NCBI GenBank assembly: GCA_964497315.1
Contig: CAZCCH010000004.1
Span: 18,307 to 82,306, forward strand
DNA length: 64,000 nt
DNA from: an uncultured Planctomycetia bacterium
Lineage (GTDB): Bacteria; Omnitrophota; Gorgyraeia; Taenaricolales; CAZCCH01
Direction: 5' to 3'
This document shows, one piece after another, positions 27,890-64,000 of the stretch. Position numbers and translations under genes: made by a program. A model generated the notes under the pieces. The model saw only the letters and a list, made by a program, of their open reading frames with translations. It was not told the origin of the DNA and did not search any database. Position 1 is the stretch's first letter. Every line of letters starts with the position of its first letter.

Positions 27890-29311
27890 TTAGATGCCCC
27901 CTGCTATGGCTAGAAAACCATCGAAGTAACGTTTGATATCATTCAAACTTCTAATTTGTTTAATCTGTTGAAAAATATATTTTGGCCTGAGATAAAACCT
28001 TTTATGTATAACAGAAGATATTGAGCGTAATTGTTCTTCAGTCATCCCTTTGGGTATATAAGCAATATCTGCCGAATCCGGGATGTTCAACTGGCAAAAT
28101 TGACTCCATTTTCTATGAAGAAGCGTCCCTTCTTTTGATGCAATATCAAACAATTCATTTCCAGGGTATAGCGTCACATTATAAAAATTGGCTATATCTA
28201 TAGGTAAGGATTTAGCAAATTCCAAGCTGCGGTTTATGGAATCGAGGGTATCTCCTGGCATGCCAATAACAAAAAATGCCCTCACGTTAAGCCCTGCCTT
28301 TTTTGCCTGCTTAACTGCTCTGGAGCTATCCTCTATGGTCATGCCCTTCTTCATGCTAGCTAAGATAGCTGGATCTCCTGATTCTAGGCCGAATCCTATC
28401 TGCCAGCACCCTGCTTGTTTCATAAGTCTTAAAAGTTCTTCATTCACACAGCGCACATGTGAGAGACAAGACCAGATAATATCTAATTTCTTTTTTATTA
28501 TCTGTTGGCATATAGCCATAGCTCTTTCTTTATTAACTGTGAAAGTATCATCGAAGAATTTTATCTCTTTAACACCATATTTAAACTTAAGCTCTTCTAT
28601 TTCCTCTAATACGTTTTGTACTGAACGAGCTCTAAACTTATTGCCAAATACCTTCCTATCGCAAAATGTACATCCAAAGGGACACCCCCTACTGGTCATC
28701 ATATGTGCAAAAGGCAACTTTCTATATGAAGCAGCAACAGGTTTGTAATACTTTAAGTCAGGATAGAGATGGCGTGCCGGAGGTGGTAATTTATCCAAAT
28801 TGTCTATATAACCAGCTCTTTGTGTTATTTTTATACGACCATTTTCTTTATACGCTACACCTTCTATCTTTTCTAGTTGCAGGGAATTTTCTTGTATTTG
28901 TTTTGCTAATTCCAAAAATGCATACTCGCCTTCTCCTATAATACCTATATCAAAATTAGAATTCTGCATTGCTTCTTCTGGAATAGCGGTCATGTGGGGT
29001 CCTCCTAATACCAGAAAAACCCCTGACAATGCATCTTTTATCTTTTTTGCAACTGAACAGGCATTCGGATAAGAAAGTGTTGTGGCGGTTATTCCAATAA
29101 TTTGCGGGTTAGCCTCCTTAAGCATACCAACTAACTCCTCTTCTTGTGTATTTAAAGGACGACTGTCGATTATGCTAATATCAAAACCTTCTCTTTCTAA
29201 AACTGCAGCTATATAACCCAGCCCCAAAGATGGTAAAACATTGGCTATCCTCTTAAATTTTCCAGCATATTCTGGCCTAGATAAAGGGGGGTCTATTAAG
29301 CAAATCTTCAT
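27890..29311 (-). CDS. B12-binding-domain radical SAM enzyme.
   Basis: The product is 473 aa. An N-terminal B12-like domain (LGLGYIAAVLEREGFDISIID) is followed by SRGCPFGCTFC. Confidence 0.8.
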   Translation of the reverse strand: MKICLIDPPLSRPEYAGKFKRIANVLPSLGLGYIAAVLEREGFDISIIDSRPLNTQEEELVGMLKEANPQIIGITATTLSYPNACSVAKKIKDALSGVFLVLGGPHMTAIPEEAMQNSNFDIGIIGEGEYAFLELAKQIQENSLQLEKIEGVAYKENGRIKITQRAGYIDNLDKLPPPARHLYPDLKYYKPVAASYRKLPFAHMMTSRGCPFGCTFCDRKVFGNKFRARSVQNVLEEIEELKFKYGVKEIKFFDDTFTVNKERAMAICQQIIKKKLDIIWSCLSHVRCVNEELLRLMKQAGCWQIGFGLESGDPAILASMKKGMTIEDSSRAVKQAKKAGLNVRAFFVIGMPGDTLDSINRSLEFAKSLPIDIANFYNVTLYPGNELFDIASKEGTLLHRKWSQFCQLNIPDSADIAYIPKGMTEEQLRSISSVIHKRFYLRPKYIFQQIKQIRSLNDIKRYFDGFLAIAGGI

Positions 29312-34183: not shown

Positions 34184-35293
34184 TTAAGAACCAACTATGT
34201 CTGTAAGTTGAGAGATAACATATTCAATCTCAATTTTTGTTAGACCAGGATATATGGGAAGTGAGATAACCTCTCTGCATAGTTTTTCTGCAACTGGGAA
34301 TTTCCCTTTCTTATATCCTGAATCCCTGTATGCGCCTTGGAGATGCAAAGGTATTGGATAATGTACCAATACCTTGATCCCTCTTTTAGAAAGTTCTTTG
34401 ATAACGTGATTACGCCTAGGCACTCTCACTACATACTGATGATATACATGTTTTGCATATGGTGCTTCTAGTGGGGTAATCACATTAGCCTTTGATCTTG
34501 TGAATAATTTATTGTAAATTTTTGCATTTAATCTTCTTTTGTTATTCCATTCGTCCAATTCATTCAACTTTATATTCAATATAGCTGCTTGAATAGAATC
34601 AAGGCGCGAATTGTAGCCTTTTATCATATGTTCATATTTTGACTTTCTGCCATAATCCCTTAAAAGCAACAATTTTTTATATATCTTGCTGTTATTGGTA
34701 ACTGCTACTCCGGCATCTCCATATGCACCTAGGTTTTTGCCTGGGTAAAGACTGAAAGCACCTATATCCGAAAAGCGCCCTACCTTTTTACCTTTATATT
34801 TTGCACCATGGGCTTGAGAAGCATCTTCGATTATCTTCAGGCCATGCCTTCTAGCTATTTTTCTGACAGAATCCATATCGCACGGTTGGCCGTATAGATG
34901 GACTGGTATAATTGCCTTTGTCTTTTTTGTGATAGCCTTTTCTATTTTATCTACATCTATGTTGTATGTTATTGGATCAGCATCTACTAGCACTGGCCTG
35001 GCACCGGTAAAGGAAATAGCCAATGCAGTAGCTATATAAGTATTCGCTGTAGTAATTACTTCATCGTTTGCGCCTATGCCTAATGCTAGAAGCGACAAAA
35101 ACAAAGACTCTGTACCGTTTGCCACTCCTACTGCATATCTAACACCGCAATATTTGGCAAATCGCTCCTCAAATATCTTAACATCAGGACCAAGTATAAA
35201 GGAACCCTTAGCTATTGCCTTCTTTACAGAAGATTCTATCTGTTTAGAAACTTTTGCGTCCTGTTTTTTTAAATCCATAAAAGCTACCTTCAC
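34184..35293 (-). CDS. DegT/DnrJ/EryC1/ArnB-family PLP-dependent nucleotide-sugar aminotransferase.
   Basis: The product is 369 aa. It has FILGPDVKIFEERFAKYCGVRYAVGVANGTESL and the PLP lysine region DASQAHGAKYKGK. Confidence 0.85.
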   Translation of the reverse strand: MKVAFMDLKKQDAKVSKQIESSVKKAIAKGSFILGPDVKIFEERFAKYCGVRYAVGVANGTESLFLSLLALGIGANDEVITTANTYIATALAISFTGARPVLVDADPITYNIDVDKIEKAITKKTKAIIPVHLYGQPCDMDSVRKIARRHGLKIIEDASQAHGAKYKGKKVGRFSDIGAFSLYPGKNLGAYGDAGVAVTNNSKIYKKLLLLRDYGRKSKYEHMIKGYNSRLDSIQAAILNIKLNELDEWNNKRRLNAKIYNKLFTRSKANVITPLEAPYAKHVYHQYVVRVPRRNHVIKELSKRGIKVLVHYPIPLHLQGAYRDSGYKKGKFPVAEKLCREVISLPIYPGLTKIEIEYVISQLTDIVGS

Positions 35294-35916
35294 TTTTTAC
35301 CTCCTGTATATGGTTTTTGTCTTTTATTTAAACCTGTTACGCACTTCAACTTTCTAACATCCTTCCTAACGCGTGCAGGATTTCCGTAAACCAGGGCATT
35401 CTTAGGAACATCTTTGGTGACTACACTCCCTGCGCCTATTAGACTATTCTCACCTATTTTCACAAAAGGCAAAATAGTTACATTTACCCCAATCTTGGCA
35501 TTCTTTTTTATAACAGGTCCTCTTTGGCATTCTCTTGAAAGCCTGCACCCAGGATGTATATCATTGGCTATGGTTACGCCCGGCGCTAAAAATACCCCAT
35601 CTTCTATTCTGGTATACTGTGCCACATAACAGTTTGAGTGTATTTTTACATCTTTTCCAATGTTACAGCCATAGTCAACAATAGAGTTGTTCCAAATTTT
35701 AAAATCATCTCCGATCTTATTCTCTTCTCTTATAACTACCCCATGACCTGTCTCTAAATTTTTACCTATGCTTGAGCCCTCATATACAACCGTTCCGCAT
35801 CTTATCTTGGCGTTTTTACCTATGCGGAGCATGCGATTCTTTATCTTCCTTGGGCAGGCATAGCCTATCTTTACGTCATCATCAATCTTAGAGGGTTTTA
35901 CGATACTAACCTTCAT
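35290..35916 (-). CDS. Left-handed beta-helix (hexapeptide-repeat) sugar N-acetyltransferase, WbpD/PglD-like.
   Basis: The product is 208 aa. Repeated [LIV]G..xx hexapeptides are visible across the length (for example IGKNLETGHGVVI and IGKDVKIHSNCYV). Confidence 0.8.
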   Translation of the reverse strand: MKVSIVKPSKIDDDVKIGYACPRKIKNRMLRIGKNAKIRCGTVVYEGSSIGKNLETGHGVVIREENKIGDDFKIWNNSIVDYGCNIGKDVKIHSNCYVAQYTRIEDGVFLAPGVTIANDIHPGCRLSRECQRGPVIKKNAKIGVNVTILPFVKIGENSLIGAGSVVTKDVPKNALVYGNPARVRKDVRKLKCVTGLNKRQKPYTGGKK

Positions 35917-36989
35917 AGCTTTACCACCTTTCCTCTGTTTCTTAGAGATTCTTCGACGGCATTTATAACCCTCACAACATCCTCTCCGTTTTTGGCATCC
36001 GAAATTGGTGTATTTTTATTTTTAATACAATCTAAGAAATGCTGACATAATAACTTCACCGGTTCTTGCAAGTCAATCTTCGGACTTACTATGTCTCCGT
36101 CCCTAAGTATATACTGAAATTCTCCGAAATTATCATAGGGCTTATCCGTAGAAATGCCTTTTTGAAAAAACTTTATCTTTTCTAAGTTGTCTAAATCGTT
36201 AAAAACAATTCTAGCATCACTTCCAACTACCCGTACTTCCCTAACCTTATTGGAATCAGCCCAGGAAACATGTATGTTGGCTATAATATTATTCTCATAT
36301 ACTAAGTTGATAAAAGCTACGTCTTCACGTCCTTCCTTGAGATAAGTTCCTCCAATAGCAGAAACCTCAACTGGGTTACTATCTAAAAGGAAGGAAAATA
36401 TAGAAATATCATGGGGTGCTAAATCCCAAACGGCATTCACGTCTTCTCTTATAAGTCCTAAATGCGTCCGCGTAGAATGTAGGTAGTATATCTGGCCAAG
36501 TTTTCCTTCTTTTATGTATTCTTTCATCTTTGCAATAGCTGGATTATACAAAAAAGTATGGGATACCATCAGCATAACATTCTTTTTTTTTGATAGCCCG
36601 CCTAGTTCTTGACATTGCCTGTAATCAAGGGTCAGGGGTTTTTCTACTAAGGTATGCTTGCCTGCCGATATAGATTCCTTTGCAAGTTGGTAGTGAGTTT
36701 TTGTTGGGGTCGCTATCACAATCGCATGAATCTCATCGTTTGAAAGCAAATCTTTATAATCTGTTGTGGTATTAACATTATGAAACTGCTGTTTAATCTT
36801 TTTTAATTTACTTTTATCCAGGTCGCAGCAGAAAAGCACATCTAAGTCATCCAAAGAGTTGAAATTTCTGATATAGTTCGGTCCCCAATGTCCACAACCT
36901 ATGACGCCAACGTTAATCATTTCATATCCTCCTATTTCCTGCAAATTCCAATAAATCCCGCAAAATCCCTGCTCTTTCATTAAATACAC
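35913..36989 (-). CDS. Gfo/Idh/MocA-family NAD-dependent nucleotide-sugar oxidoreductase (WbpB/GnnA-like).
   Basis: The Rossmann opening is INVGVIGCGHWGPNYIRNF. The likely true start is the internal MINVGV Met near 36920, which removes the overlap with the upstream gene. Confidence 0.8.
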   Translation of the reverse strand: MYLMKEQGFCGIYWNLQEIGGYEMINVGVIGCGHWGPNYIRNFNSLDDLDVLFCCDLDKSKLKKIKQQFHNVNTTTDYKDLLSNDEIHAIVIATPTKTHYQLAKESISAGKHTLVEKPLTLDYRQCQELGGLSKKKNVMLMVSHTFLYNPAIAKMKEYIKEGKLGQIYYLHSTRTHLGLIREDVNAVWDLAPHDISIFSFLLDSNPVEVSAIGGTYLKEGREDVAFINLVYENNIIANIHVSWADSNKVREVRVVGSDARIVFNDLDNLEKIKFFQKGISTDKPYDNFGEFQYILRDGDIVSPKIDLQEPVKLLCQHFLDCIKNKNTPISDAKNGEDVVRVINAVEESLRNRGKVVKL

Positions 36990-46996: not shown

Positions 46997-48442
46997 CTAT
47001 TTGCTTAGCAAGGTGTATTTAAAAAGCGACAAAAATCCTTTGAGGCTGGCGAAAAAATTGCCCAAATTTCGCATTCTTAACAGATGGTGAAATATTATTT
47101 TTGGCCGCATATAAAACCTTTTAAAAGCTAACCTGTTATATTTCACTAAAATATCCTCGGTTAAACCAAAAGGAATAAATGTCGGTTTTTTATGCATGTG
47201 TAGTTCTGACCATTCAAGATTTGAAGACCCGTATTTGTTAATCTCGCTATGAATTTGTGATCCTGGAAACGGTGCCAAATAATTTATTTTAAAATCATCC
47301 AATTCTAGTTTTAACGCAAAATTAACTGAATCCTGTAAATCTTTTTCTGTTTCTGTTGGAAGCCCCATCATAAAAAAACCTATCGTCTTAATACCCACCT
47401 TGCGAGTTAAGCTAACGGCGTTTTCAATCTGCTGTAAACTTATTTTTTTATTTATCGCATTAAGAACCTCTTGCGAACCACTTTCTATGCCATAGCGTAT
47501 TTGCCAGCATCCTGCTCTCTTCATTATCCGCAGAAGACCTTCATCTGCATCATCCACTCTCCCTAAGCACGACCATGAAATATCCAGTTTTTCCTTTAAA
47601 ATCCTGCTGCATACATTTTTAACGTGATTTTTATCTAACATAAACTCATCGTCATTAATACGTATGTCCCGAATTCCATATCTAAAAATTAGATCCTTCA
47701 TCATTTCAATAATATATTCAGGGCTGTGTTTTCTGTACCTATTGCCAAATACACTTCTATCGCAAAATGTACATTTAAAACTACAACCTCGAGACGTAAC
47801 CAAGGAAAACGAAGGAAATCTATTGACAGCATACCCCGTAGGTTTATAGTGTTTTCTTATATCAGGTAAAAGATTCCATGCTGGCATTGGTAAAGAATCC
47901 AAGTCCGAGATTAAATTGTTTCTCTCGGTTTGAAAAATATTTCCGTCACGCCTAAACACTATTCCTCTTATACTTGATAAGTCATTTCCATTTTCTAGGC
48001 TTTTAAGGAGTCTAATAATCGTGTCCTCGCCTTCTCCTATAATACCCACATCAAAACATTCGTATTTTGCAAAAGTTTGTTCTGGCTCAGCTGTTATGTG
48101 GCTACCGCCTATCAAAATCTTTAGACTTGGATTACTGTTTTTTAAAATGCTTGCCAGCTTAGCAGCATTATCGACAGCTAATGATACAGCAGTAAACCCA
48201 ACATAATCTGGCTTCTTGCTTGCAATAATATTGGCTGCTTCATTAAGAGATAAATTTAGAGCTGGCATATCTACTATTTCTGTAGCTAGACCTTCACTTT
48301 TCGTAATTGCAGCCAGATAGCATATACCTAAAAGGGCCTCGGTGCTACCCCCGCCAGCCAGCTCTCCATACAATTCCTCCTGGGATATTATAGGGCTTAC
48401 AAAAACTATTTTTGGTTTTTTAAAATTTCTTGAATTATCCAT
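46997..48442 (-). CDS. B12-binding-domain radical SAM enzyme.
   Basis: The product is 481 aa. It has a B12-like N-domain and SRGCSFKCTFC. Confidence 0.8.
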   Translation of the reverse strand: MDNSRNFKKPKIVFVSPIISQEELYGELAGGGSTEALLGICYLAAITKSEGLATEIVDMPALNLSLNEAANIIASKKPDYVGFTAVSLAVDNAAKLASILKNSNPSLKILIGGSHITAEPEQTFAKYECFDVGIIGEGEDTIIRLLKSLENGNDLSSIRGIVFRRDGNIFQTERNNLISDLDSLPMPAWNLLPDIRKHYKPTGYAVNRFPSFSLVTSRGCSFKCTFCDRSVFGNRYRKHSPEYIIEMMKDLIFRYGIRDIRINDDEFMLDKNHVKNVCSRILKEKLDISWSCLGRVDDADEGLLRIMKRAGCWQIRYGIESGSQEVLNAINKKISLQQIENAVSLTRKVGIKTIGFFMMGLPTETEKDLQDSVNFALKLELDDFKINYLAPFPGSQIHSEINKYGSSNLEWSELHMHKKPTFIPFGLTEDILVKYNRLAFKRFYMRPKIIFHHLLRMRNLGNFFASLKGFLSLFKYTLLSK

Positions 48443-53457: not shown

Positions 53458-54786
53458 TCACTTTATAGCTTCTTCCAGCACTTCCTTTAACTGTCTCGTA
53501 AGCCGTCTTCTGTCAAATTTTTTCACAATATAATCATTTATCTTTCTGTTTTGGTCTTCTCCTGCCTTGTACTTGCTATAGAATTCATACACTGCATTGC
53601 TAATAGCCTTGATATCCTCTGGAGAAACAACTTTGCCGCATTGAACTTCTTGAACAACTTCACTGATAGCTCCCTTGTTACACAAAGCCAAAATAGGACG
53701 TCCTGCCCCAATATAATCAAAGATTTTAGCCGACAGAAATCTATGTGCAATTTCTACTTGGTCCTCTATAAACAAGAGAAGGTCGCTGCTAATCATACGG
53801 CTCAAGGTATCCCTGTAACTCAAGAATCCAGAAAAGGAAACGATTTTCTTAAGTATCGGGCTATTAACTAATGAGATTATCTCTGGTTCAATGTCACCTA
53901 TAAATGAAAGATTTATGTCATCTGCGATGTGCGGGTTTTTACTTATTAAATTCTCCAAGCCCATAAGAAAATACTTAGGTGAGCGGTGCTTGTAAAGAGA
54001 ACCAGCGCATATAATAGAAAATTTCTCTTTTCTACTGATTTTAACGTTAGTAAAATCATCAAGATCAAAACCGTTTGTGATACAAACAAATTTATGTTCA
54101 TAAGCCCTGTATCTTCTTCTAAAATTTTCTACAATGGGCTCTGTTACAGATATGACTGTATCAGAGTTTTTAATTACAAATCTCTCCATATTCTCTTCTA
54201 TCTTGCATCTTAGCTTTTTCTTCTGTGGGAAAAAATACCTATTAAATTCAACCCATTCATCGCGAAAGTCAACAATAAGAGGCTTGCGGGTGATGAATTT
54301 CAATAAGACCCCTGTAAGAAAGCTGGAAAATGGCTCTCCCGTTGCATAGATAACATCTACTTTCTCATTTTTTATGACTGAGCTACCTTTTAATACTGCA
54401 AATGGAATCCAACCCACCCTTGTATCCGGAATCAGTATCCACCACTTTAGTTTTGATAAAAAAGAATAGAATATGTCTTTAATCATGCTAAATTTTTTGG
54501 TGGTTTTGGTATTCTCTGGTTTTAGGATGTTTGATATACGGTTATTAGATTCTATGGAATTAGTTCTGATAATTTTAATATCCTGGGGTATTTCATTTAT
54601 TAAATCGTAATCGTACACCGAAACAGACGGTTTCTTAACCGTCAAGACAATGGGTTCCCATTCGAATTCTTTTAAATATTTTACGAATTTTAATATCCTT
54701 CGTACTCGGCCTCCCCCAACAGGTGGGAAGCTATATGCTATCATCAATATCTTTTTCATATTGCCACTATTTAAAATATCTTTCAT
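53458..54786 (-). CDS. GT4 glycosyltransferase.
   Basis: The product is 442 aa. It has the N-terminus KKILMIAYSFPPVGGGRV and the C-terminal GT-B nucleotide-binding half. Confidence 0.7.
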   Translation of the reverse strand: MKDILNSGNMKKILMIAYSFPPVGGGRVRRILKFVKYLKEFEWEPIVLTVKKPSVSVYDYDLINEIPQDIKIIRTNSIESNNRISNILKPENTKTTKKFSMIKDIFYSFLSKLKWWILIPDTRVGWIPFAVLKGSSVIKNEKVDVIYATGEPFSSFLTGVLLKFITRKPLIVDFRDEWVEFNRYFFPQKKKLRCKIEENMERFVIKNSDTVISVTEPIVENFRRRYRAYEHKFVCITNGFDLDDFTNVKISRKEKFSIICAGSLYKHRSPKYFLMGLENLISKNPHIADDINLSFIGDIEPEIISLVNSPILKKIVSFSGFLSYRDTLSRMISSDLLLFIEDQVEIAHRFLSAKIFDYIGAGRPILALCNKGAISEVVQEVQCGKVVSPEDIKAISNAVYEFYSKYKAGEDQNRKINDYIVKKFDRRRLTRQLKEVLEEAIK

Positions 54787-56671
54787 GCCAATTAGTTAGG
54801 CACAAGAGGCTCCATATGTGATTTGAATCCATAAGTGCACTCTTAAACAACCCATCAATCTTTTTTTTATCAACAACCCCCAATTCATAAAGTGCTCCTG
54901 AATTAAGTGATTCCTCAATATAGCTCTTCAATGATCTACTTGCCCACAATTTAAAAGGAGTATTAAAACCAACCTTATCTTTTCTGTTAAGAATTGCATC
55001 AGGGAGGAGGTCTTTACCAGCTTCCCTTAGGACCTTTTTGGTTGCTAAATTTCCAATTTTTATCTCCTCTGGTATAGAAAAAGCCAGCTCAGCAATTCTG
55101 TAATCCAATAACGGAGATCTTGCCTCAACCGATGAAACCATGCTAATTCTATCATCTACGTGTAATAACGCAGGTAAATAAACCTTGAAATCAAAATATA
55201 GCATTTTATCCAAAATCCCGGCTCTATGACCTTTATTAAAAATTTGCAAAAATCTTTCGATTTGGCTCTTTTGTCTATTCCTTATAAAATCTTTCATATA
55301 AAAATGTTTTTGTCTGTTCATCGTGTTCATTAAATAGTAGTATCTTCTACCTAAATCACAACCAGACCTTGTAGCCAGAAACGTCAATAATTCTTTAATT
55401 GTAACTTTTGAAAAAATGCTCTTTGCTGCAGATAACACCGCCTTTCTCTTCTTTAACGACCTTATAAATATCTCCTCTGAATATGTCCTAATGTATCTAT
55501 GGTAACCTCCAAAAAGTTCATCTCCTCCTTCACCGCCAAGCAAAACTTTAACATGCGCCCTTGATGCCTCTTTTGCAATAAAATGCTGTGCGTACATGCC
55601 GGGGCCGCCTGCCGGTTCATCAAGATGCCAAATTAGATCTGAGAAAATACGTGAAAAATCCTCTGTGGATGGAATAACTTCGTTATATTTAATATTAGTC
55701 TCTTTAGCTAAAAGTCTTGCATAATGAGATTCGTCATATTGGGGATCCTCTGTAAATCTTCCGTTAAAACTTGTGATAGACTTGGGGGATTCTCTCGTCG
55801 CAATCATCCCAACAATACTTGAGTCTATACCTCCGCTTAATGAGAGACCAACAGATACGTCAGACCTTAACCTTAATCTTACAGAATCATATAATAAATC
55901 CTTTAATTGAATCGCATAATCTTCTTCAAGTCTATTCTCATAATTAAATTTAATATCCCAATAACGAGCGCTTTTAACATTATCTTTGGTAATTACGAGA
56001 TAATGTGCGGGTTTTAGCTTTTTTATGCCTTTAAAGAATGTAGCATCGCCAAGTGAAAACTGAAATGAAAGATAATCATAAATTGCATCTAGCTCTGGAG
56101 TTTTCTTAAAATTATCATATTCCAAAATTGACTTTATCTCGGAAGCAAATAAAATTTTGTCAGGGCCTATGGAATAATATAGCGGTTTTATGCCAATTCT
56201 GTCTCTTGCTAAAAATAATGATTTTTGTTTGCAGTCCCAAATTGCGATTGCGAACATACCGTTAAAACGCTGTAAGCAATCCACTCCAAATTCTTCATAA
56301 GCATGCAGGATTACTTCTGCATCTGTCTTTGTCTTAAATATATGCCCCTTACTTTTAAGAAAACTCTGCAGTTCAATATAATTATAAATACATCCATTAA
56401 ATACTAACCACACAGACCCATTCTCGTTGCTCATCGGCTGCTTAGCCGATTCAGATAAATCTATAATGCTCAGCCTACGATGTCCCAGTCCTATATCTCT
56501 GTCTTTATAAAACCCTTCATTGTCAGGGCCTCTGTGTGAAAGCATTGCTGTCATTCTTTTTAAAGACAGCTCATCGACATTCTTTCCATTTCGGTTATAG
56601 ATTCCGGTTATGCCGCACATATGTTTATTTCTCCAGAAAAATATAGAGGAAAAACCCAAATCTTTTTTCAA
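54767..56671 (-). CDS. Asparagine synthetase B-family amidotransferase, second paralogue.
   Basis: The mature start is probably the internal MCGITGIY near 56620, because the catalytic Cys must follow the initiator Met. It has the PP-loop SGGIDSS. Confidence 0.85.
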   Translation of the reverse strand: MKKDLGFSSIFFWRNKHMCGITGIYNRNGKNVDELSLKRMTAMLSHRGPDNEGFYKDRDIGLGHRRLSIIDLSESAKQPMSNENGSVWLVFNGCIYNYIELQSFLKSKGHIFKTKTDAEVILHAYEEFGVDCLQRFNGMFAIAIWDCKQKSLFLARDRIGIKPLYYSIGPDKILFASEIKSILEYDNFKKTPELDAIYDYLSFQFSLGDATFFKGIKKLKPAHYLVITKDNVKSARYWDIKFNYENRLEEDYAIQLKDLLYDSVRLRLRSDVSVGLSLSGGIDSSIVGMIATRESPKSITSFNGRFTEDPQYDESHYARLLAKETNIKYNEVIPSTEDFSRIFSDLIWHLDEPAGGPGMYAQHFIAKEASRAHVKVLLGGEGGDELFGGYHRYIRTYSEEIFIRSLKKRKAVLSAAKSIFSKVTIKELLTFLATRSGCDLGRRYYYLMNTMNRQKHFYMKDFIRNRQKSQIERFLQIFNKGHRAGILDKMLYFDFKVYLPALLHVDDRISMVSSVEARSPLLDYRIAELAFSIPEEIKIGNLATKKVLREAGKDLLPDAILNRKDKVGFNTPFKLWASRSLKSYIEESLNSGALYELGVVDKKKIDGLFKSALMDSNHIWSLLCLTNWHERYFK

Positions 56672-57473
56672 ACCATCTCATGCGATCTAAAAAACGTTCG
56701 TGACTCCCCCTTATATCAAAATCAATCTTCGAAAAATTTCTTACTAGTTCACTTGCTGCCTGTTTTGTATAGACCTTTGTTACAGGGTTTGCCCTGCCAT
56801 CGCTAACCCTTATTGCATATTGCGTAAGATCTTGCCAAGAAAACACGCTAACATCTTTTTTAATATCTTTTACGGAAGGCTTTAATCTGGCAATTAAATC
56901 TATCGTTGCGTTAGGCAGCAATTTAATTAAGAGGTATTTGAGCCGTAGTCTTACCAAAACATCCCAGTAATAAAAAATTGAATTTTTGTAATAAAGCATC
57001 AGGATGGCGTCGCCTCCTTTTTTTAAAACCCTGTAAATTTCATCTGCCGCCTTCTGAGTATCTACGGTATGGTGAATAACCCCGAGTGAATAGATCCTGT
57101 CAAAGGTATTATTTCCGTAAGGAAGATTTTCTGCATCGGCCTGCATAACCCTTGCTTTTTTGCCAAAGGTTTCAAATCGTTTTTTTGTAATAGAGGTTGA
57201 TCTAAAATTAAAATCAAGCGCGTAAAATTCCTGTGCGTAACTAGCCATTTTTAATGAGTGGCTCCCCATGCCACAACCTACCTCCAGAACTCTTTTATCG
57301 AAACAGCTACCATACTGCAGTATGGATGAATAAGGATATAACCTCTCAATAAGTTTATCATGCGTAAGGAAAAATTCATGCGTGCCTTCTTTAAGCTCGA
57401 TTCGATCAAAAGAACAGGGATTTTTATTCCAGAATTCTTTCACTCTGTTTTTTAGCAAGTTTTTTTTCTTCAT
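56625..57473 (-). CDS. Class I SAM-dependent methyltransferase.
   Basis: The product is 282 aa, with the motif I VLEVGCGMGSHSLKMA. Confidence 0.6.
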   Translation of the reverse strand: MKKKNLLKNRVKEFWNKNPCSFDRIELKEGTHEFFLTHDKLIERLYPYSSILQYGSCFDKRVLEVGCGMGSHSLKMASYAQEFYALDFNFRSTSITKKRFETFGKKARVMQADAENLPYGNNTFDRIYSLGVIHHTVDTQKAADEIYRVLKKGGDAILMLYYKNSIFYYWDVLVRLRLKYLLIKLLPNATIDLIARLKPSVKDIKKDVSVFSWQDLTQYAIRVSDGRANPVTKVYTKQAASELVRNFSKIDFDIRGSHERFLDRMRWFEKRFGFFLYIFLEK

Positions 57474-57574
57474 TTTGAATTACATTTAAACCTTTTACAT
57501 ATTCCAGCAAAAACCGAATTCTTTAATTAGACTAACGCCTGCGCGTTTCTTAAGGACTACCTATGATTTCTGGC

Positions 57575-59014
57575 TTAATGCAACAGGGAATATCCATAAT
57601 GTTTGACTCTATCCTTCCACCAACCGGCAATCTCATTCGGCAAGGCTACCCAGGCATTCTCTTTTGATAAATACTCCAGTATGTTTTTATAGACTTCAAT
57701 CCACCCGGGATATGCCTTAGTATCCCAAACCCTTAAATGCCACAGTATGCACGCAAAGCCGTTAAACTCTTTAATCTTCTCTAAAATCTGTATACATTTT
57801 CTTGTGGCTTCTTCGACTCCAAAATTTAATTCCATAAATAACGCGCTATCCATTATCACAAGTGGTAGCTCCAGAATCATATGCGCTCTTTTTAATGTCC
57901 GGTTATAAGGAAAAAATGGGAAGGCCGCTCCAGCACGGAAACCAAGGGCCTCATTATAGCCTAAAGACATATCATATTCAATACCGCTCTCGCGTTGGAC
58001 ATCCCAAGTTTTTTGATAGTCCAACCTGAGATAATGCTGACAAATACCTCCTACTTTATTCTTGATCACTCTTTCAAGCATATTCTTTTCTTCGGACAAT
58101 TTATCCTTATCAAGATAGCTCTCGTAGCTTCCGTGCAGACCTATTTCCCATCCACGTGCCTTTATTAATTCCATTATCTTAATAATTCTTGAATTATATA
58201 TCGAATATGTTGGATCATAAAGAATATTGCCCTGGTCAATTAAGGATGCAAAATTAAAAATAGACTTAAATCCGTATTTCCCCTCAAGTTTAATATAATC
58301 CTGAAAATTACAATATGGGTCTTTCAACTTAAAAGCTTTGTATATGAAACCCCAGATTATATGCTTGGTAGCCTGCTTTATTCCTTTAAACTTGTGTGCA
58401 TAACGCTTGAGCATATTAAGGCCTGAGTAAATATCTCCCTTAAATGGCTGATCCACATCATGTATAAGGCAAACTGAGAATTTCTTATTATCTTTATTTA
58501 AAGCTGTATAATCAAACTCCGCAGGAAACAATTTATCTAAAAGCTGCTTGAGAAGAAACGCGTAACTATTGACTACTGGAAAATCCAAAACTCCTAATTT
58601 TTTTAAAATTGTATAATTTCCAGAAAAACACCCCCAGGTATCGCGCCTTTTGTCTAACCTTTCTTCCTCGCGAGATAATAAATAAAAACTAGCTGCAATG
58701 ATATCAAATGTCAGATTGATTGCCTCATCTTCATAAAAATAAAGCGAGTCTCGTTTGGGCTTTTCTACGTACATTACAGGTATTCCATCTCGCCAATCTA
58801 GGGAAGGTTGATTCTCTAGCCATTTTTGATAATTGTCCGATGGAATTCCGATAGACTTCTCTTTGGCTTTGTAGCCATAACACAGGTGAGCCTTTTCATC
58901 GTCTCTTACAATTTTAAAACAAATACCCAGAACATAACCGTAGGTTTGGAAAATATATCTTGCCTCTTTTGCAAATGATAACTCTGGGTTAATTTTTACG
59001 TTTATAGTCTTCAT
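57575..59014 (-). CDS. ArnD/NodB-like polysaccharide deacetylase-domain protein, paralogue of the C-terminal module of 29308..31422.
   Basis: The product is 479 aa. It has CLIHDVDQPFKG and IGLHGSYESY motifs, colinear with the C-terminal domain of the 704-aa fusion. Confidence 0.5.
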   Translation of the reverse strand: MKTINVKINPELSFAKEARYIFQTYGYVLGICFKIVRDDEKAHLCYGYKAKEKSIGIPSDNYQKWLENQPSLDWRDGIPVMYVEKPKRDSLYFYEDEAINLTFDIIAASFYLLSREEERLDKRRDTWGCFSGNYTILKKLGVLDFPVVNSYAFLLKQLLDKLFPAEFDYTALNKDNKKFSVCLIHDVDQPFKGDIYSGLNMLKRYAHKFKGIKQATKHIIWGFIYKAFKLKDPYCNFQDYIKLEGKYGFKSIFNFASLIDQGNILYDPTYSIYNSRIIKIMELIKARGWEIGLHGSYESYLDKDKLSEEKNMLERVIKNKVGGICQHYLRLDYQKTWDVQRESGIEYDMSLGYNEALGFRAGAAFPFFPYNRTLKRAHMILELPLVIMDSALFMELNFGVEEATRKCIQILEKIKEFNGFACILWHLRVWDTKAYPGWIEVYKNILEYLSKENAWVALPNEIAGWWKDRVKHYGYSLLH

Positions 59015-60018
59015 GCGTCCTTATACATAAATTTTCTATATACCCTCTTCAATGACTGTACTCCTTTAGATCTTAAGCTCATAGCTTTGCTTATCTGGTA
59101 ATGCGGGATAAGCCTGACTCCAAACGTACTTTTGTAATCTGCTATGGTCTCTATATCTGCGCCCACGAAGTCTGTAATTGAATAATGCGGGGTTATTTTT
59201 TCCAAAATTTCCTTTACTATAAGCTGGTTGCCTCCAGTATTTAACAGTTGTGGATTGGAAGCAGCCATCCAATAAAAAAGCCTGTCATCATCTATTAAAA
59301 GAATTGCTCCGGAAATAACTCTATTATCTCTTGTTTTTGCTAAAAGCAGCTTGATGGATGATTTAGCAAAAAGATCTTTAAAAAAATCTAAAAATTTATC
59401 TTCGTCAAGATTTATGCATATTTTTTTCTTGCTAAACATTTGCTTCCATAAAATATAAAACTCTTTTATATCTTTGCTGTCTTCAATAAATACCCCATTA
59501 TCATGGGCATAAGCAGCTCGTCTTTCGATGTCTCTGCTGAGAGGTATTTCGTCGTTTTTGTTTCTGTAGTAAGTATATCGGACCGCGGTAGACCACCTCC
59601 TCCATATAAATGGCCTTATGTCCAAAAATCCTGGAGAATTAATAATAGTTACATAATCAAAGTTGTCTTCCAGGTAATCAATAATGCCATTCGATATGTC
59701 TTTGACATCGTTTTCAGACTTATAGTTATACTTTAGTGCTTTCAGCTCCACAATCAGGCCATTATATGGCGTAAGAAAAGGAACTTCTGCTATTCTGCCT
59801 TCCAGAGATTGCCTTACTCTTAAGCAACATCCCCCTACAATTCTCTCTCCTGAATAACAACACACAATCTTGAGATTTTGATTTGTCGCATGAGCAAATG
59901 AATCATTCCATAAAGATGAGTAAAATATTGGGCTTTTCGAATGTTGTTTAATAAAGTCTTCCCATCTGTCTAAGTCTTTACTTTGCAATTCTTTTACTAT
60001 ATATTTATTAGAATTCAT
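59011..60018 (-). CDS. Putative GNAT-fold FemAB/Acetyltransf_6-like (BioF2-like) acyl- or aminoacyl-transferase.
   Basis: The product is 335 aa. This is a weak family-level match only, resting on size, predicted fold pattern and the frequent presence of this family in exopolysaccharide loci. Confidence 0.3.
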   Translation of the reverse strand: MNSNKYIVKELQSKDLDRWEDFIKQHSKSPIFYSSLWNDSFAHATNQNLKIVCCYSGERIVGGCCLRVRQSLEGRIAEVPFLTPYNGLIVELKALKYNYKSENDVKDISNGIIDYLEDNFDYVTIINSPGFLDIRPFIWRRWSTAVRYTYYRNKNDEIPLSRDIERRAAYAHDNGVFIEDSKDIKEFYILWKQMFSKKKICINLDEDKFLDFFKDLFAKSSIKLLLAKTRDNRVISGAILLIDDDRLFYWMAASNPQLLNTGGNQLIVKEILEKITPHYSITDFVGADIETIADYKSTFGVRLIPHYQISKAMSLRSKGVQSLKRVYRKFMYKDA

Positions 60019-60938
60019 AGGACCTTATAGCTCTCAAAAAGCAAGTTATGATCTTGGCATCCAACCAACAATCTATTCTTCTTCATCGATATTATGTCGC
60101 CTATCTCTGATTCCTTTTTACCCAAATCACGTTTTATTATCCTGGGTTCTCCGACCAGTATTTTTCTGTTATTCGAGATAATATAGGTTTTAACAAACGG
60201 TGTTGATGCCCTGAAACATCTGCAAATATCTGCAGCGGATTTATTCAAGTCAAGAAATTGGTCTTCGACATTTTTATAATATGACTCCCTGTCCTTGCCC
60301 TGCGCTATCCGTTTAACACTACCATTGGCAATAGAATTTAAAACTGAGCGTACGTTCCTACCTGCTAATTTGGCACATTTCTCTGCGAGGCTGCCTGCTG
60401 TATCATTAATATCTATACTAACCTTATCTTTCAATATAATGTCACCTGTATCTATGCCAAGATCTATATAATGGAATGTAAAACCTGTTTCTTGCTCATC
60501 GTTAATTATGATCCAATAAAAGGGGTTGGGACCCCTGAATTTCGGTAGTAATGACGGGTGGCAATTTATGCATCCATAACGCGGAAAGTTTATCAGGGTG
60601 CTTGATAATCTTTCTTCCCAGCCTGCAACTAAAATTAAATTCACATGCTTCCTTTCCAGTAAGTGGCGAAATGAAGGACTATTAGTGGACTCAGTAATAA
60701 TTATAGGAACTTTAAAACGGGTCACAGCTGCATACAACTTATTACTTCTAAAATTAAAGCGTAGTTTTAGAAATAAAGAAATTCGGAATAAGGTTTTGCG
60801 AATCACACTAATCTTGAAACGTACAGCATAACTTTTAGGAATGAGAAATGTTATGCCCTTTACATTATGTCCTGAAGTCACGATGGGATCGATTAAATAT
60901 CTGGCCCATTCAACGCCAAAGAATAAAACAATATTCAT
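60015..60938 (-). CDS. Formyltransferase-domain protein (ArnA-N / sugar N-formyltransferase-like).
   Basis: The product is 307 aa. The core CHPSLLPKFRGPNPFYWIIINDEQETGFTFHYIDLGIDTGDIILK aligns to the formyl_trans_N motif, with the catalytic His and Asp. The N-terminal ~90 aa are atypical. Confidence 0.65.
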   Translation of the reverse strand: MNIVLFFGVEWARYLIDPIVTSGHNVKGITFLIPKSYAVRFKISVIRKTLFRISLFLKLRFNFRSNKLYAAVTRFKVPIIITESTNSPSFRHLLERKHVNLILVAGWEERLSSTLINFPRYGCINCHPSLLPKFRGPNPFYWIIINDEQETGFTFHYIDLGIDTGDIILKDKVSIDINDTAGSLAEKCAKLAGRNVRSVLNSIANGSVKRIAQGKDRESYYKNVEDQFLDLNKSAADICRCFRASTPFVKTYIISNNRKILVGEPRIIKRDLGKKESEIGDIISMKKNRLLVGCQDHNLLFESYKVL

Positions 60939-61669
60939 CTCACCTTCCTAAATAATAGCACCATCTCTGAAAAATCCTGCCTAAATAATGAATTAAAAGA
61001 ACTTGGGATTTTATTTGCGGAAATAAAAAGGTTATATCCACAAAATGGGCATATCGTGCGCATTGGCCTTCTCTCTGATCTATTGAAAACAATCTGTTTC
61101 AGACGCATTGTCAGATCATGCAATTTAAAACGTGGTGGTTCGCAGTACTTGAAATCCAAAAGTTCAAAATTTGGAAAAATTTCCAATATACTATCCTTGG
61201 TAAAACTCCTTGCGTGCCAGTTTAAATGAAATACCTCACCACATCCGGGACACTTTGTGGTGTTTAAGGTTATATCCTCGTTGTTGGGTACATTAATAAG
61301 TATATATTTGCTACTTAGTGCCTGCACCTGACTTATGACCCTGGATAAAAGCTCATCGCTTAAATGTTCTAGGATATCGCTCAGTAAAATTAAATCAAAT
61401 GTGCCCTTCTTGAACGGGAGATTCTCTGCGGCAGCCTGTAATTTCTTTGCTTGTACATGTATCAATGCCTCTATGCTAAAATCGATAGCGACAACATCAA
61501 ATCGTTTTGCTAATGGATTACATATGATACCGTCACCGCACCCAACATCAAGTACGGTTTTCACATCATCCGGTATAGTAAGGTTAATAGCATTTAACCT
61601 GCTTACCTCATGATCACCTATCTCTGCAGCGCTTTTCCCATCGCGAGGCAAGTCATAGTATGTCAGCAT
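60935..61669 (-). CDS. Class I SAM-dependent methyltransferase.
   Basis: The product is 244 aa. It has the motif I VLDVGCGDGIICNPLAKRF and C-terminal CxxC pairs (CPGCG...CPFCG). Confidence 0.6.
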   Translation of the reverse strand: MLTYYDLPRDGKSAAEIGDHEVSRLNAINLTIPDDVKTVLDVGCGDGIICNPLAKRFDVVAIDFSIEALIHVQAKKLQAAAENLPFKKGTFDLILLSDILEHLSDELLSRVISQVQALSSKYILINVPNNEDITLNTTKCPGCGEVFHLNWHARSFTKDSILEIFPNFELLDFKYCEPPRFKLHDLTMRLKQIVFNRSERRPMRTICPFCGYNLFISANKIPSSFNSLFRQDFSEMVLLFRKVR

Positions 61670-62628
61670 AATGATTTCTCTCGATTATTAATTAGATCAA
61701 ACTGCAATGACTGTTTTAACCTCCAAAAAAACCACATCCTATAAATAGACATCTTCTCTCTCATAGTTTTATCATGCGGAGACCATCTATCTGCAGCACC
61801 CTTAAAGGCTTCCTCTCTTGTGATATCGTAAAGGGATAACAATAGGCAAAAATTAAATTTATTATACATTCTATCCGACAATTTTTTTCCAGGATAATAC
61901 CAACTCCACAAGTTATTAAAATTCCAAATAGATATCTGCCTGGTTAGGGTATTAATGCCTTCATCAAACAAAATTTTTGCTCGGCTGGAATTTGTGTATT
62001 TAAATGCATCGTATAAACCCAATAGAGCGACCAAAAAACCGTCTAATATGCGTACTGAATCATTGGTGCCATGATATTCTTCATAAAATACAAGTCCTTC
62101 TCTTTTAGACTTCACGCCACCATCTCTTACTTCTGTCTCAAATAAATTTAAGATATTCTCAAAATCCTCAATATATCTTTCATCATTTTTAAGTCTATAA
62201 ACCCTACTCAATAAACTTAACGCCATGCCATGACCCATAGCTGATATCCAAGGAGGCGTAAGTAAAATTCCGTCTTCCACCCAAGGATAGTCATGAGCCC
62301 AAAAACAACCCCTCTTATTATCTCTCGAAACATTTTTTATAAGCCAATCTGCTTGCTTATAGGTTTTTCTAAGCCATTTTTCTGACTTATTTTTCAAATA
62401 GCTCTGCAAGCAAAATATTCCCCATATAGCAACAAATAAATAGTTTCGCTGGACTCCAATAGGAGATTTGTATTTTCTTAAAGGAATTTTATCTTCATCG
62501 AAAGTCAGGTGAAAATAATCTGCAACATCCATGCCTGTAAAGTCAACATAATAATTTATGTCTCCTGATGCATCTGACACATGTAAGGGAAAATCTAAAT
62601 TTAGGTAATTTCTGAGCATCTTAAGCAC
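61663..62628 (-). CDS. D-glucuronyl C5-epimerase C-terminal-domain homologue (C5-epim_C).
   Basis: The product is 321 aa. WISAMGHGMALSLLSRVY matches metazoan GLCE WISAMAQGQAIS.LVRAY. YEEYHGT...ILDGFLVALLGLYD matches YEEYPTT..VLNGFMYSLIGLYD. RWSPHD matches RWKSY. Confidence 0.55.
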   Translation of the reverse strand: MLKMLRNYLNLDFPLHVSDASGDINYYVDFTGMDVADYFHLTFDEDKIPLRKYKSPIGVQRNYLFVAIWGIFCLQSYLKNKSEKWLRKTYKQADWLIKNVSRDNKRGCFWAHDYPWVEDGILLTPPWISAMGHGMALSLLSRVYRLKNDERYIEDFENILNLFETEVRDGGVKSKREGLVFYEEYHGTNDSVRILDGFLVALLGLYDAFKYTNSSRAKILFDEGINTLTRQISIWNFNNLWSWYYPGKKLSDRMYNKFNFCLLLSLYDITREEAFKGAADRWSPHDKTMREKMSIYRMWFFWRLKQSLQFDLINNREKSLC

Positions 62629-63731
62629 GCCGGGTATACTCCATTTCTTTTTAACTTTTTCCTAAAATCACGGAAATTGCTATTATTCCATATAAATCTA
62701 AAGCTTGACTTATGGATATTTCCAAAAACAACATTAAAGCAACGCATTCTAGGGATTACTTCACCTCTTGCTGTAATCTGCGCCATAACCCAAGGAGACT
62801 GACACCTACTGCCATCATATAGAACTTTTTCCGGATCGCAATAATAAGTACCTAAAAGATCTCTACTAAGTATCTTAGTATAAATCCTAATTCCTGAGGC
62901 CCTCCCCAGTTTCTTAGCATCTTTTAACTGCTGTAAAAGTACGGGGATATCAATTCTGTCCAAATCTTGACCATTAATACCACTCTTAGAAACAGTAATA
63001 TCAGGGTGCTTTAAGTTATGTTTCTGTGCAACCTCCTCAGTTATAAAGTTTAAATGCGAAAAAGTAATTGAAGATAACCCTTTTTCCTTTATAGCTTCTA
63101 CTGTTTCTACTAAATTATGAAAATTTGAGTTTGAAATCGTATATATTATGTGCATTTTAGGACTTCGAATGCCGTATTGTTTTTTAAAGTGCTTTATTCT
63201 TTCAATGCCATCTAGGATTTGTTCATATATCCCTATTTTTCCGCGAATTTTCTCATGCACGGCCTTTGTGCCATCTAGTGAAATAAAAATATCGTCAAGC
63301 TTTAATTTTACAAGTGACTCTGCATGCCTGACCAAAAACACCCCATTTGTCGTCAGGCTGCAATGCAACACATTCTCTTTTACATAACCGACAATTCTGG
63401 CTATATCAGGGTGCAAGAGAGGTTCACGAGAAGTCAAAGAGATTGAAGGTTGGAAAAATTTCACGTTATCAACTATATTCTTAAAGTTATCAAATGAAAG
63501 AATTGCGTTTTCGCTTACGGTTCCGGCGTTTTTTGTAAAGGTAGAACTTGGCAAATTCTTAGCCGCATCGCACATCTCGCATCTTAAATTGCAAGTGGTA
63601 TTAACGGCTATGAATAATACTGATGGGGATAAAGCGCGCCCGTTACCAAGATAGTAAAACACTCTTTTATTTAATTCGTACCTAGCTTTGGAATAAAGCT
63701 TACCGTAATTGATATTAATGAGTTTACGCAT
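62601..63731 (-). CDS. Radical SAM enzyme (SPASM/twitch-like C-terminal Cys).
   Basis: The product is 376 aa. It has the N-terminal cluster motif NTTCNLRCEMCD and the C-terminal cysteines CQSP....CLRCSE. Confidence 0.75.
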   Translation of the reverse strand: MRKLININYGKLYSKARYELNKRVFYYLGNGRALSPSVLFIAVNTTCNLRCEMCDAAKNLPSSTFTKNAGTVSENAILSFDNFKNIVDNVKFFQPSISLTSREPLLHPDIARIVGYVKENVLHCSLTTNGVFLVRHAESLVKLKLDDIFISLDGTKAVHEKIRGKIGIYEQILDGIERIKHFKKQYGIRSPKMHIIYTISNSNFHNLVETVEAIKEKGLSSITFSHLNFITEEVAQKHNLKHPDITVSKSGINGQDLDRIDIPVLLQQLKDAKKLGRASGIRIYTKILSRDLLGTYYCDPEKVLYDGSRCQSPWVMAQITARGEVIPRMRCFNVVFGNIHKSSFRFIWNNSNFRDFRKKLKRNGVYPACLRCSEIT

Positions 63732-64000
63732 GATATGAGCTAAATAAGTTTGTGCATCTGTAACCAGCTGGAAATAGTTTGTTTTTCCTAAGGCGCTTTC
63801 TAAATTCTTTATACGGCTTGCCTAACCATATATCTTTGAAATCTTTTTCATTTACATTGCCCATTTTTAAGCCGAAACACTTAAAGCCTGGCGTCACATC
63901 GCCATTGGGTAATAGCCAACAGTATTTCCACGGATAATAACAGCGGTTAAAATGGCTTACCGGCTCTAGGTGCTTTTTATAATAGGTGATGAGGTCATCG
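63724..64000 (-). CDS. C-terminal SPASM-domain fragment of a further radical-SAM-type protein (gene continues beyond the window end).
   Basis: The reverse-complement frame reads ..CYYPWKYCWLLPNGDVTPGFKCFGLKMGNVNEKDFKDIWLGKPYKEFRKRL..RCTNLF..*. Its stop overlaps the start of the 62601..63731 gene. It is not in the ORF track because it has no in-window start. Confidence 0.5.
   Translation of the reverse strand, partial: DDLITYYKKHLEPVSHFNRCYYPWKYCWLLPNGDVTPGFKCFGLKMGNVNEKDFKDIWLGKPYKEFRKRLRKNKLFPAGYRCTNLFSSYHA

Follow-up and report, generated by a model that had tools for sequence, protein, structure and literature searches.

Three tandem radical SAM genes with twitch-type tails

The stretch of DNA analysed here, 64 kb of contig CAZCCH010000004.1 (the window), ends inside a tandem set of genes for radical S-adenosylmethionine (SAM) enzymes. 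Residue and base coordinates are window positions unless they carry an L prefix. Every long open reading frame (ORF) of the window is read from the minus strand, and the set lies at its high-coordinate end. A matching 73-kb contig (L001; JGI 3300009374 Ga0118720_1000379) extends beyond that end; it completes the gene cut by the window edge, rSAM-B, to 392 aa, and it carries a third tandem paralog, rSAM-A. The two radical SAM genes at the window edge are members B (3ʹ end) and C (complete) of a tandem, translationally coupled A-B-C set. The stop of rSAM-B overlaps the start of rSAM-C by 8 nt, and from rSAM-B through the VimE-like gene (Table 1) successive genes overlap by 4–28 nt. The three proteins are 32–40% identical to one another, and each contains CX3CX2C.

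The original prediction, made from the letters of the window, described a pair of SPASM-type radical SAM enzymes. A 376-aa radical SAM protein at 62601..63731 is confirmed by its ORF, its CNLRCEMC motif and its Pfam matches, and the overlaps and Pfam matches likewise bear out a coupled block with a C5-epimerase-like gene, a SAM methyltransferase gene and a formyltransferase gene. The truncated gene at 63724..64000 does encode a fragment that matches SPASM, but it had been called downstream and Cys-rich. Transcription proceeds towards lower coordinates, which puts it upstream (5ʹ) of rSAM-C, and its 91 aa include four Cys, with Gly at one ligand position. Both genes of the pair exist, but the set is a trio. 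Similarly, the four class B enzymes were correctly recognized, but the estimate of at least six radical SAM proteins was too low: with the third paralog on L001, the cluster has seven radical SAM genes, three twitch-type and four class B.

Assignment of rSAM-C to the radical SAM enzymes with a partial TIM-barrel core is consistent across Pfam, sequence motifs and predicted fold. The Pfam Radical_SAM and SPASM models score 66.5 bits (cutoff 29.5) and 42.9 bits (cutoff 21.5), respectively, and the 91-aa fragment of rSAM-B scores 43.8 bits with SPASM. In an alignment of 155 family members, every sequence that includes the N-terminus keeps the motif residues C47, C51 and C54, and E103-P104 (“REP”) and T127-T128-N129-G130 are also invariant. 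An AlphaFold2 model of rSAM-C, built from a 22-sequence alignment, has a mean predicted local distance difference test score of 92.6 and a predicted template modelling (TM) score of 0.91.

The tail of rSAM-C is short, ending four residues past C372. In the family alignment, Cys is found at Cys1 in 153/155 members, in the Cys2 region in 155/155, at Cys3 in 154/155 and at Cys4 in 155/155, and 135 of the 155 proteins terminate no more than 10 residues after Cys4. A fifth Cys stands right behind Cys4 in 120/155 and is absent from A, B and C. The CX2CX5CX3C signature of SPASM domains occurs in 0/155. When PDB sequences were searched with the tail on its own, BtrN was the sole match (E 2e-6); the family profile matches BtrN with E 3e-15. 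Aligned with residues 168–238 of BtrN, its twitch domain, the tail has C310 opposite C169 and C369/C372 opposite C232/C235. These three BtrN Cys, together with C187, reportedly ligate the single auxiliary cluster of that enzyme. In the AlphaFold2 model, the tail begins with strands at 316–319 and 324–326, and these are followed by helices. SPASM-subfamily enzymes have seven to eight Cys, including CX2CX5CX3C, and two auxiliary clusters; despite the Pfam match, the family lacks these features. It has instead the features of the twitch subfamily, whose domain contains three to four Cys and is homologous to the first SPASM half. Hence, given the four-Cys tail, the missing CX2CX5CX3C and the BtrN match, the Pfam “SPASM” label denotes the truncated twitch form, and the earlier description of the enzymes as SPASM-type does not hold. 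One auxiliary cluster per tail is expected from these alignments.

Table 1. Positions of the radical SAM genes and of other features of the cluster
Feature	Position	Strand	Basis
rSAM-C, complete twitch-type radical SAM enzyme, 376 aa	62601..63731	-	ORF; Pfam Radical_SAM + SPASM
rSAM-C CNLRCEMC (CX3CX2C; C47, C51, C54), predicted SAM-binding [4Fe-4S] site	63570..63593	-	Direct sequence reading
rSAM-C twitch (truncated SPASM) domain, C310/C331/C369/C372	62616..62804	-	BtrN match; Cys conservation
rSAM-B, last 91 codons, gene cut by window edge	63724..63999	-	Translation without internal stop, ends in stop; Pfam SPASM
rSAM-B, full gene, 392 aa	L001:6660-7838		L001 contig
rSAM-A, third tandem paralog, 372 aa	L001:5540-6658		Beyond window high-coordinate end
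rSAM-B Gly codon GGT at Cys3 position (“PAGYRC”)	63763..63765	-	
rSAM-B extra Cys, 7 residues past Cys1	63919-63921	-	
D-glucuronyl C5-epimerase-like protein, overlaps rSAM-C end	61663..62628	-	Pfam C5-epim_C, 117.9 bits
SAM-dependent methyltransferase	60935..61669	-	Pfam Methyltransf_23/25/11
Fmt/ArnA-like formyltransferase	60015..60938	-	Pfam Formyl_trans_N + Formyl_trans_C; TIGR00460 131 bits, below cutoff
VimA-like FemAB/GNAT-type transferase, 335 aa	59011..60018	-	Pfam Acetyltransf_6; weak TIGR03019 pepcterm_femAB match
VimE-like de-N-acetylase (DUF7033)	57575..59014	-	NCBIfam NF053580
WbpS-like AsnB-type amidotransferase (uronic acid to uronamide), 634 aa	54767..56671	-	Pfam Asn_synthase + GATase; TIGR03108
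GT4 glycosyltransferase of cassette	53458..54786	-	Pfam Glyco_transf_4, Glyco_trans_1_4
Four B12-binding class B radical SAM enzymes	20229-21668, 26471-27877, 27890-29311, 46997-48442		
WbpB/E/D-like genes	34184-36989		

Glycan genes around the trio and its relatives

The trio lies in a glycan super-cluster of ~65 kb that runs from ~8 kb in the window to the window end and a further 9 kb beyond. It includes genes for glycosyltransferases, Wzy, a WecA-like initiating transferase, WbpB/E/D-like proteins, two AsnB-like amidotransferases, methyltransferases and an ABC exporter. On the 5ʹ side of rSAM-A, L001 carries genes for a Wzx flippase, a UDP-GlcNAc-2-epimerase-type (WbpI-like) protein, a hexapeptide acetyltransferase and a GT1 glycosyltransferase; WbpI-like and WbpD-like genes are found just upstream of the trio. 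rSAM-A is directly 3ʹ of the Wzx gene, and a radical SAM gene after Wzx is seen again in three other loci, L003, L090 and L091. As to the source of the DNA, the nearest named homologs of the window PriA (54–58% identity) are all from Candidatus Omnitrophota.

Several genes of the cassette resemble those for a sugar pathway of Porphyromonas gingivalis and Tannerella forsythia, whose enzymes yield 2-N-seryl or 2-N-glycyl 3-N-acetyl-gluc(mann)uronic acid or its amide (PMC7468200). The DUF7033 protein matches NF053580, the model for the UDP-2,3-diacetamido-2,3-dideoxy-glucuronate deacetylase VimE, over nearly its full length (145 bits, E 2e-42; equivalog cutoff 440). The 634-aa AsnB-like protein scores 454 bits with TIGR03108 (eps_aminotran_1), the family of WbpS/PGN_1234, and VimA itself matches the TIGR03019 family (PMC7468200). 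The C5-epimerase-like protein matches zebrafish and human Glce. The Tyr of its “FYEEY” motif aligns with zebrafish position 468, which we take to be a catalytic Tyr.

From these matches, the cassette would build and decorate a 2,3-diamino-2,3-dideoxy-hexuronic acid or uronamide, and the formyltransferase, the two methyltransferases, the C5-epimerase-like protein and the three radical SAM enzymes would presumably decorate the sugar further. The part at 53458-60938 is a Wbp/Vim-like sub-cassette outside Bacteroidota; its content points to a diamino-uronamide sugar as the product, with an N-acyl or aminoacyl group that is possibly N-formylated.

The same arrangement recurs in other DNA. In L003, from another metagenome, the genes are WbpB-like, WbpB/D-like fusion, Epimerase_2, Wzx, Aʹ, methyltransferase, Bʹ and Cʹ, followed by C5-epim_C, methyltransferase, formyltransferase, FemAB-like, DUF7033, AsnB and GT4. 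Identity with the corresponding proteins of the window and L001 is 45–64% for the radical SAM enzymes, 40–56% for the shared cassette neighbours (49% for the methyltransferase encoded at 60935..61669 and 40% for GT4) and up to 72% for the upstream WbpD-like acetyltransferase; the formyltransferase also has an ortholog there. L087 has Aʺ (tail alone), Bʺ, Cʺ and an ortholog of the C5-epimerase-like protein at 42% identity. L003 and L087 contain one-to-one orthologs of A, B and C, and a related set of three is found in L090, which has AsnB, Wzx, two twitch enzymes, a class B enzyme, a methyltransferase, a third twitch enzyme and a C5-epimerase-like gene. Three further loci have a C-type gene: L088 (C-type gene, GDSL protein, C5-epim_C, AsnB), L089 (C-type gene, an (alpha/alpha)6-like protein with a faint C5-epim_C signal, AsnB, GT1, class B enzyme) and L091 (Wzx, then the C-type gene). 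A C5-epim_C-like gene is located behind the rSAM-C-type gene in five independent loci (L001, L003, L087, L088 and L090), and an AsnB/WbpS-like gene is kept near rSAM-C-type genes in L003, L088, L089 and L090.

We also surveyed more distant relatives. A GTDB locus search seeded with three close sequences yielded 80 loci, and the ORFs of these and of the first-found loci (84 in all) were clustered and representatives annotated. The most frequent neighbours are GT4 glycosyltransferases (27 loci), DegT aminotransferases (19 loci), WbqC (18 loci), class B radical SAM enzymes (16–23 of the 84 loci), SAM methyltransferases (15 loci), WecA/MraY-type transferases (14 loci) and PIG-L deacetylases (13 loci). 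Glycan genes are neighbours in every locus whose context was examined, the Paenibacillus context apart. A family-wide link to the C5-epimerase was tested and rejected; among the 80 GTDB loci, a heparinase II/III-like neighbour is found solely in L022. There, an 800-aa heparinase II/III-like ORF (L022:7540-9951) is directly upstream of the family member, an arrangement that echoes one of the fusions described below (P0074).

The twitch family to which the trio belongs is large and unnamed. A HMMER profile search of 1.84 billion representatives returned 5,151 proteins at E <=1e-30 (~5,000 clusters at 50% identity), the 150 best of which score >316 bits; a word-indexed search had recovered just 35 relatives. 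In GTDB species genomes, relatives at 25–34% identity occur in Omnitrophota, Scalindua/Brocadiaceae (anammox Planctomycetota), Elusimicrobiota, Chloroflexota, Thermodesulfobacteriota, Acidobacteriota, Paenibacillus and archaea. We found no paper on the family, or on a twitch enzyme in surface-polysaccharide biosynthesis, in the published literature covered, which leaves out most subscription journals. Some members are fused to other domains: a heparinase II/III C-domain (P0074), a GT2 glycosyltransferase (P0178), a B12-radical SAM enzyme (P0103) and an ABC ATPase (P0154). Three polypeptides of 1.4–1.9 kaa (thousand amino acids), P0077, P0119 and P0124, contain three twitch-type modules each, to which P0124 adds a B12 class B module. 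We considered these as fused A-B-C orthologs and rejected the idea: they are 20–27% identical, with no one-to-one mapping to A, B and C. Hence, we do not count them as evidence for the triad.

Probable function and competing explanations

The closest solved relatives of the trio act on sugars and related molecules. Among PDB sequences, the core of rSAM-C is most similar to BlsE (7vob; phmmer E 4e-9, family profile E 5e-20). BlsE is also the top match when the rSAM-C model is compared with the PDB by Foldseek (E 1e-14, TM 0.64/0.73), followed by SkfB, SuiB, DesII, CteB, MoaA, anSME, PqqE, viperin and BtrN. Together with the genomic context, these matches make it fairly probable, in our view, that A, B and C are sugar- or glycan-directed twitch enzymes of a surface-glycan pathway. 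Epimerisation or dehydrogenation of sugars had been offered in the original prediction as an alternative to peptide modification; it now appears the better choice, with BlsE and BtrN as the nearest solved relatives and homologs located in glycan clusters.

Activity on peptides was the first suggestion of that prediction, along with maturation of a sulfatase, and neither fits the data. Many SPASM/twitch enzymes do target peptides, and the trio has weak NCBIfam matches to PapB, WgkB, CcpM and the mycofactocin maturase. These could point to maturases of peptides that are ribosomally synthesized and then modified post-translationally (RiPPs; sactipeptide, ranthipeptide or pyrroloquinoline quinone (PQQ) type) that act on an unannotated precursor peptide. 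However, the scores are far under cutoff, and the neighbours in the loci examined are glycan genes. A single helix (residues 2–28) precedes the core, and hence there is no RiPP recognition element domain; Pfam gave no PqqD match. A search for a nearby precursor peptide found none that fits: genes overlap or are 1–20 nt apart, and the largest intergenic gap in 19 kb (101 nt) contains no ORF. Neither a recognition element nor a precursor peptide being found, we rejected this explanation, which we regard as extremely unlikely.

Could the three instead be anaerobic sulfatase-maturating enzymes (anSMEs), with the sulfatase-fold protein of the cluster as their target for formylglycine formation? The Pfam SPASM match, the presence of anSME (4k37, E 4e-10) among the fold matches and the sulfatase-fold gene itself are compatible with this. 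The four-Cys tail argues otherwise: it lacks CX2CX5CX3C, and hence a site for a second auxiliary cluster. Moreover, the sulfatase-fold protein encoded at 17301-19199 has TQTNWTHALVPS in place of C/S-x-P-x-R; the original prediction had already noted Thr at the formylglycine position. Its N-terminus also forms a membrane region of the kind typical for LtaS/EptA-type transferases, and sulfatase-fold neighbours are found in 2/84 related loci. We rejected the anSME explanation as far as sequence allows, and consider it almost certainly wrong. The sulfatase-fold protein is likely an LtaS/EptA-type phospho-transferase; next to its gene are one for a type I phosphodiesterase, at 15210-17285, and one for a CDP-glycerol glycerophosphotransferase-like protein, at 12826-13983.

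A further explanation is that these are housekeeping or cofactor enzymes (MoaA, PqqE, NirJ/Ahb heme or tungsten-cofactor maturase) that are in the cluster by chance. For A, B and C alike, every NCBIfam score stays below the cutoff of its model. The highest, 97–121 bits against a cutoff of 380, is with W_rSAM_matur, and there are weak matches to NirJ1, NirJ, AhbC/AhbD, MoaA (68 vs 284) and PqqE (44 for paralog A vs 381). While cofactor enzymes are thus the top NCBIfam matches, all scores are less than one third of the curated cutoff. In addition, the three paralogs are syntenic with glycan genes at 45–64% identity in other organisms, and there are no molybdopterin, PQQ or heme genes nearby. Both the curated cutoffs and the context led us to reject this reading as exceedingly improbable. 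A MoaA- or PqqE-type housekeeping context in other genomes had been named as grounds for abandoning the link to glycans; we found glycan genes there instead, and the finding therefore stands.

Two alternatives place the trio within the glycan pathway, acting on something other than the sugar ring. The first is action on the pathway lipid, either the polyprenyl carrier or a membrane lipid, by Tes/GDGT-MAS-type chemistry. Weak matches to GDGT-MAS (7tol) and Tes, the position of a radical SAM gene directly behind Wzx in several loci, and a polyprenyl synthetase gene in the window are in keeping with this. However, the GDGT-MAS match is restricted to the core (TM 0.46), the proteins look soluble, with no predicted lipid-binding extension, and the closest ties are to uronic acid-handling enzymes. 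We consider a lipid substrate very unlikely. The second is that the target of the trio is the amino-acyl or acyl group placed on sugar N-2 by the VimE/VimA-like pair. Such peptide-type radical chemistry on a glyco-amino acid could include epimerisation at C-alpha, reactions at the beta-carbon or formation of a crosslink. The VimE-like, VimA-like and Fmt-like genes are in the same coupled block, the peptide-modifying enzymes SkfB, SuiB and CteB are close in fold, and VimA adds Ser or Gly to the deacetylated N-2 in P. gingivalis and T. forsythia (PMC7468200). Nonetheless, the best sequence matches are sugar enzymes, and L088, L089 and L091 have rSAM-C-type genes without detectable VimA/VimE on their short contigs, where the C5-epimerase-like and AsnB genes are kept. 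Modification of the N-2 substituent is unlikely, in our judgement.

What might three paralogs do to a sugar? Tentatively, we suggest that the three twitch enzymes and the C5-epimerase-like protein remodel a 2,3-diamino-uronic acid or uronamide in several radical steps, independent of nicotinamide adenine dinucleotide, while a surface polysaccharide is assembled. This would be a series of oxidations, epimerisations or decarboxylations at different ring carbons, and we regard it as possible rather than probable. The analysis shows the motifs and the fold, the gene structure, the size of the family, its synteny and its glycan context; the Fe-S cluster content, the substrate and the type of reaction are what we infer. 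In such a mechanism, the CX3CX2C [4Fe-4S] cluster would cleave SAM to the 5ʹ-deoxyadenosyl radical, which would take a ring-carbon hydrogen from a nucleotide- or lipid-linked uronic acid sugar, and the twitch domain would hold a second, fully Cys-ligated [4Fe-4S] cluster. Three outcomes can be envisaged: transfer of an electron to the auxiliary cluster to give a keto-sugar (BtrN-like dehydrogenation), return of hydrogen on the opposite face (NeoN/HygY-like epimerisation), or loss of CO2 (BlsE-like decarboxylation). We would prefer a scheme in which each paralog oxidises or epimerises one of several successive centres, alongside the adjacent C5-epimerase-like protein.

Some features bear on the choice between these outcomes. 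By analogy with BtrN, a fully ligated auxiliary cluster would suit ketone formation, in that it could take up the second electron. The 155-sequence alignment contains no family-wide non-ligand Cys that could serve as hydrogen donor for epimerisation; hence, oxidation is mildly favoured. C124 is present in 60/155 members, and its predicted position at the start of a barrel strand leads us to judge it remote from the active site. His226 and His238/Asn239, conserved in ~80% of family members, are possible acid/base or binding residues. The conservation of three paralogs suggests three distinct sites or steps. Any single reaction is much less certain than the assignment to the pathway.

Several observations weigh against a sugar-directed role. 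As fold matches, the peptide enzymes SkfB, SuiB and CteB nearly equal BlsE. Identity to BlsE and BtrN is ~14–17% over the fold, and the BlsE equivalog model TIGR04466 scores 47.7 (C), 59.3 (A) and 51.7 (B) bits (cutoff 400); similarity this low does not specify the reaction. In the tail, Cys2 is shifted, with C331 falling three residues after the position of BtrN C187, and paralog B lacks the third ligand Cys, with Gly there as the sole case among the 155. The C5-epimerase link is confined to the closest subfamily and does not extend to the relatives at 25–34% identity. A UDP-sugar 6-dehydrogenase (WbpA-type) domain was not detected across the 73-kb contig; hence, we infer the uronic acid precursor from the tailoring genes alone. 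Finally, we found no biochemical data on family members in the published literature. With regard to paralog B, the sequence with Gly is identical in a second metagenome sample (L002), yet neither A nor C is as well conserved as B, which is 64% identical to its L003 ortholog. B may have swapped a ligand, or it may bind its cluster through three Cys.

Comparison with known systems

BlsE, from the blasticidin S pathway (7vob/7voc), decarboxylates cytosylglucuronic acid (PMC3715490). It resembles the trio in core sequence and in whole-model fold, and it acts on a hexuronic acid, the type of sugar that the genes around the trio imply. However, identity is ~17%, and BlsE belongs to a nucleoside-antibiotic pathway, whereas the trio shares a surface-glycan cluster with genes for Wzx, Wzy and glycosyltransferases; nothing found points to decarboxylation specifically. 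BtrN, the 2-deoxy-scyllo-inosamine dehydrogenase of butirosin biosynthesis (4m7s/4m7t) and the founding twitch enzyme, is the only solved protein with a sequence match to the tail. At ~250 aa, with a shortened barrel, BtrN differs from the trio (372–392 aa), whose core is longer and which carries an HLNF...HN segment specific to the family; the substrate of BtrN is an aminocyclitol in antibiotic biosynthesis. The anSME structures (4k36-4k39) share the superfamily, radical dehydrogenase activity and a homologous first SPASM half, but these enzymes have two auxiliary clusters with the CX2CX5CX3C motif that is absent from the trio.

NeoN and HygY, from aminoglycoside pathways, invert sugar carbons by abstraction and return of hydrogen, and we liken them to the trio by description only. 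As cited in PMC10991966, NeoN epimerises an amino sugar at C-5ʹʹʹ, Cys249 being the hydrogen donor, and the title of a paper cited there calls HygY a twitch enzyme and gives it a latent dehydrogenase activity. The linking-sugar (Wbp/Vim) pathway of P. gingivalis and T. forsythia is similar to the cluster in its VimE, VimA-type, WbpS-type, WbpB/E/D-like and WbpI-like components. In contrast to the cluster, that pathway has no radical SAM enzymes, C5-epimerase-like protein or formyltransferase; the matches in the cluster are all below equivalog cutoffs, and Omnitrophota are not known to have a link to type IX secretion.

The architecture and the probable chemistry of the trio are already known; what is new is the biological setting, a three-paralog module tied to a C5-epimerase-like protein. 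The sugar-modifying twitch enzymes that we know of (BtrN, BlsE, HygY and NeoN) are all from antibiotic pathways of actinomycetes or bacilli. If our interpretation is true, this would be, to our knowledge, the first case in which twitch-type radical SAM enzymes act in the biosynthesis of cell-envelope glycans. In addition, it would assign a function to an unannotated family with thousands of members in anaerobes and candidate phyla, reveal a radical route by which anaerobes reach rare sugar stereoisomers or keto-/deoxy-sugars and that annotation has missed, give a context for the recurrent pairing with class B methylases, and extend the Wbp/Vim aminoacyl-sugar pathway beyond Bacteroidota. The linkage to C5-epimerase-like and WbpS-like genes and the defined Wbp/Vim-type substrates would then be a first functional handle on the family, making in vitro tests feasible.

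Other features of the cluster and of the family can be noted. Genes for a homocysteine S-methyltransferase (9187-10089) and an ATP sulfurylase (14063-15247) are within the glycan cluster; the former may supply methionine and SAM for the seven radical SAM enzymes and at least five methyltransferases, and the latter may serve glycan sulfation. Upstream of the trio, between the genes for the hexapeptide transferase and GT1, a 116-aa ORF (L001:1055-1405) has an acyl-carrier-protein-like “DSLAF” motif and no Pfam match. In Paenibacillus, seven loci (L066, L070, L071, L078, L080, L084 and L086) have two tandem distant members at 27–28% identity. Their neighbours are genes for an AMP-ligase, an ATP-grasp protein, a short-chain dehydrogenase/reductase and ABC transporters, a context that differs from that of the glycan clusters. 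Cultured Paenibacillus is a possible genetic handle on the family.

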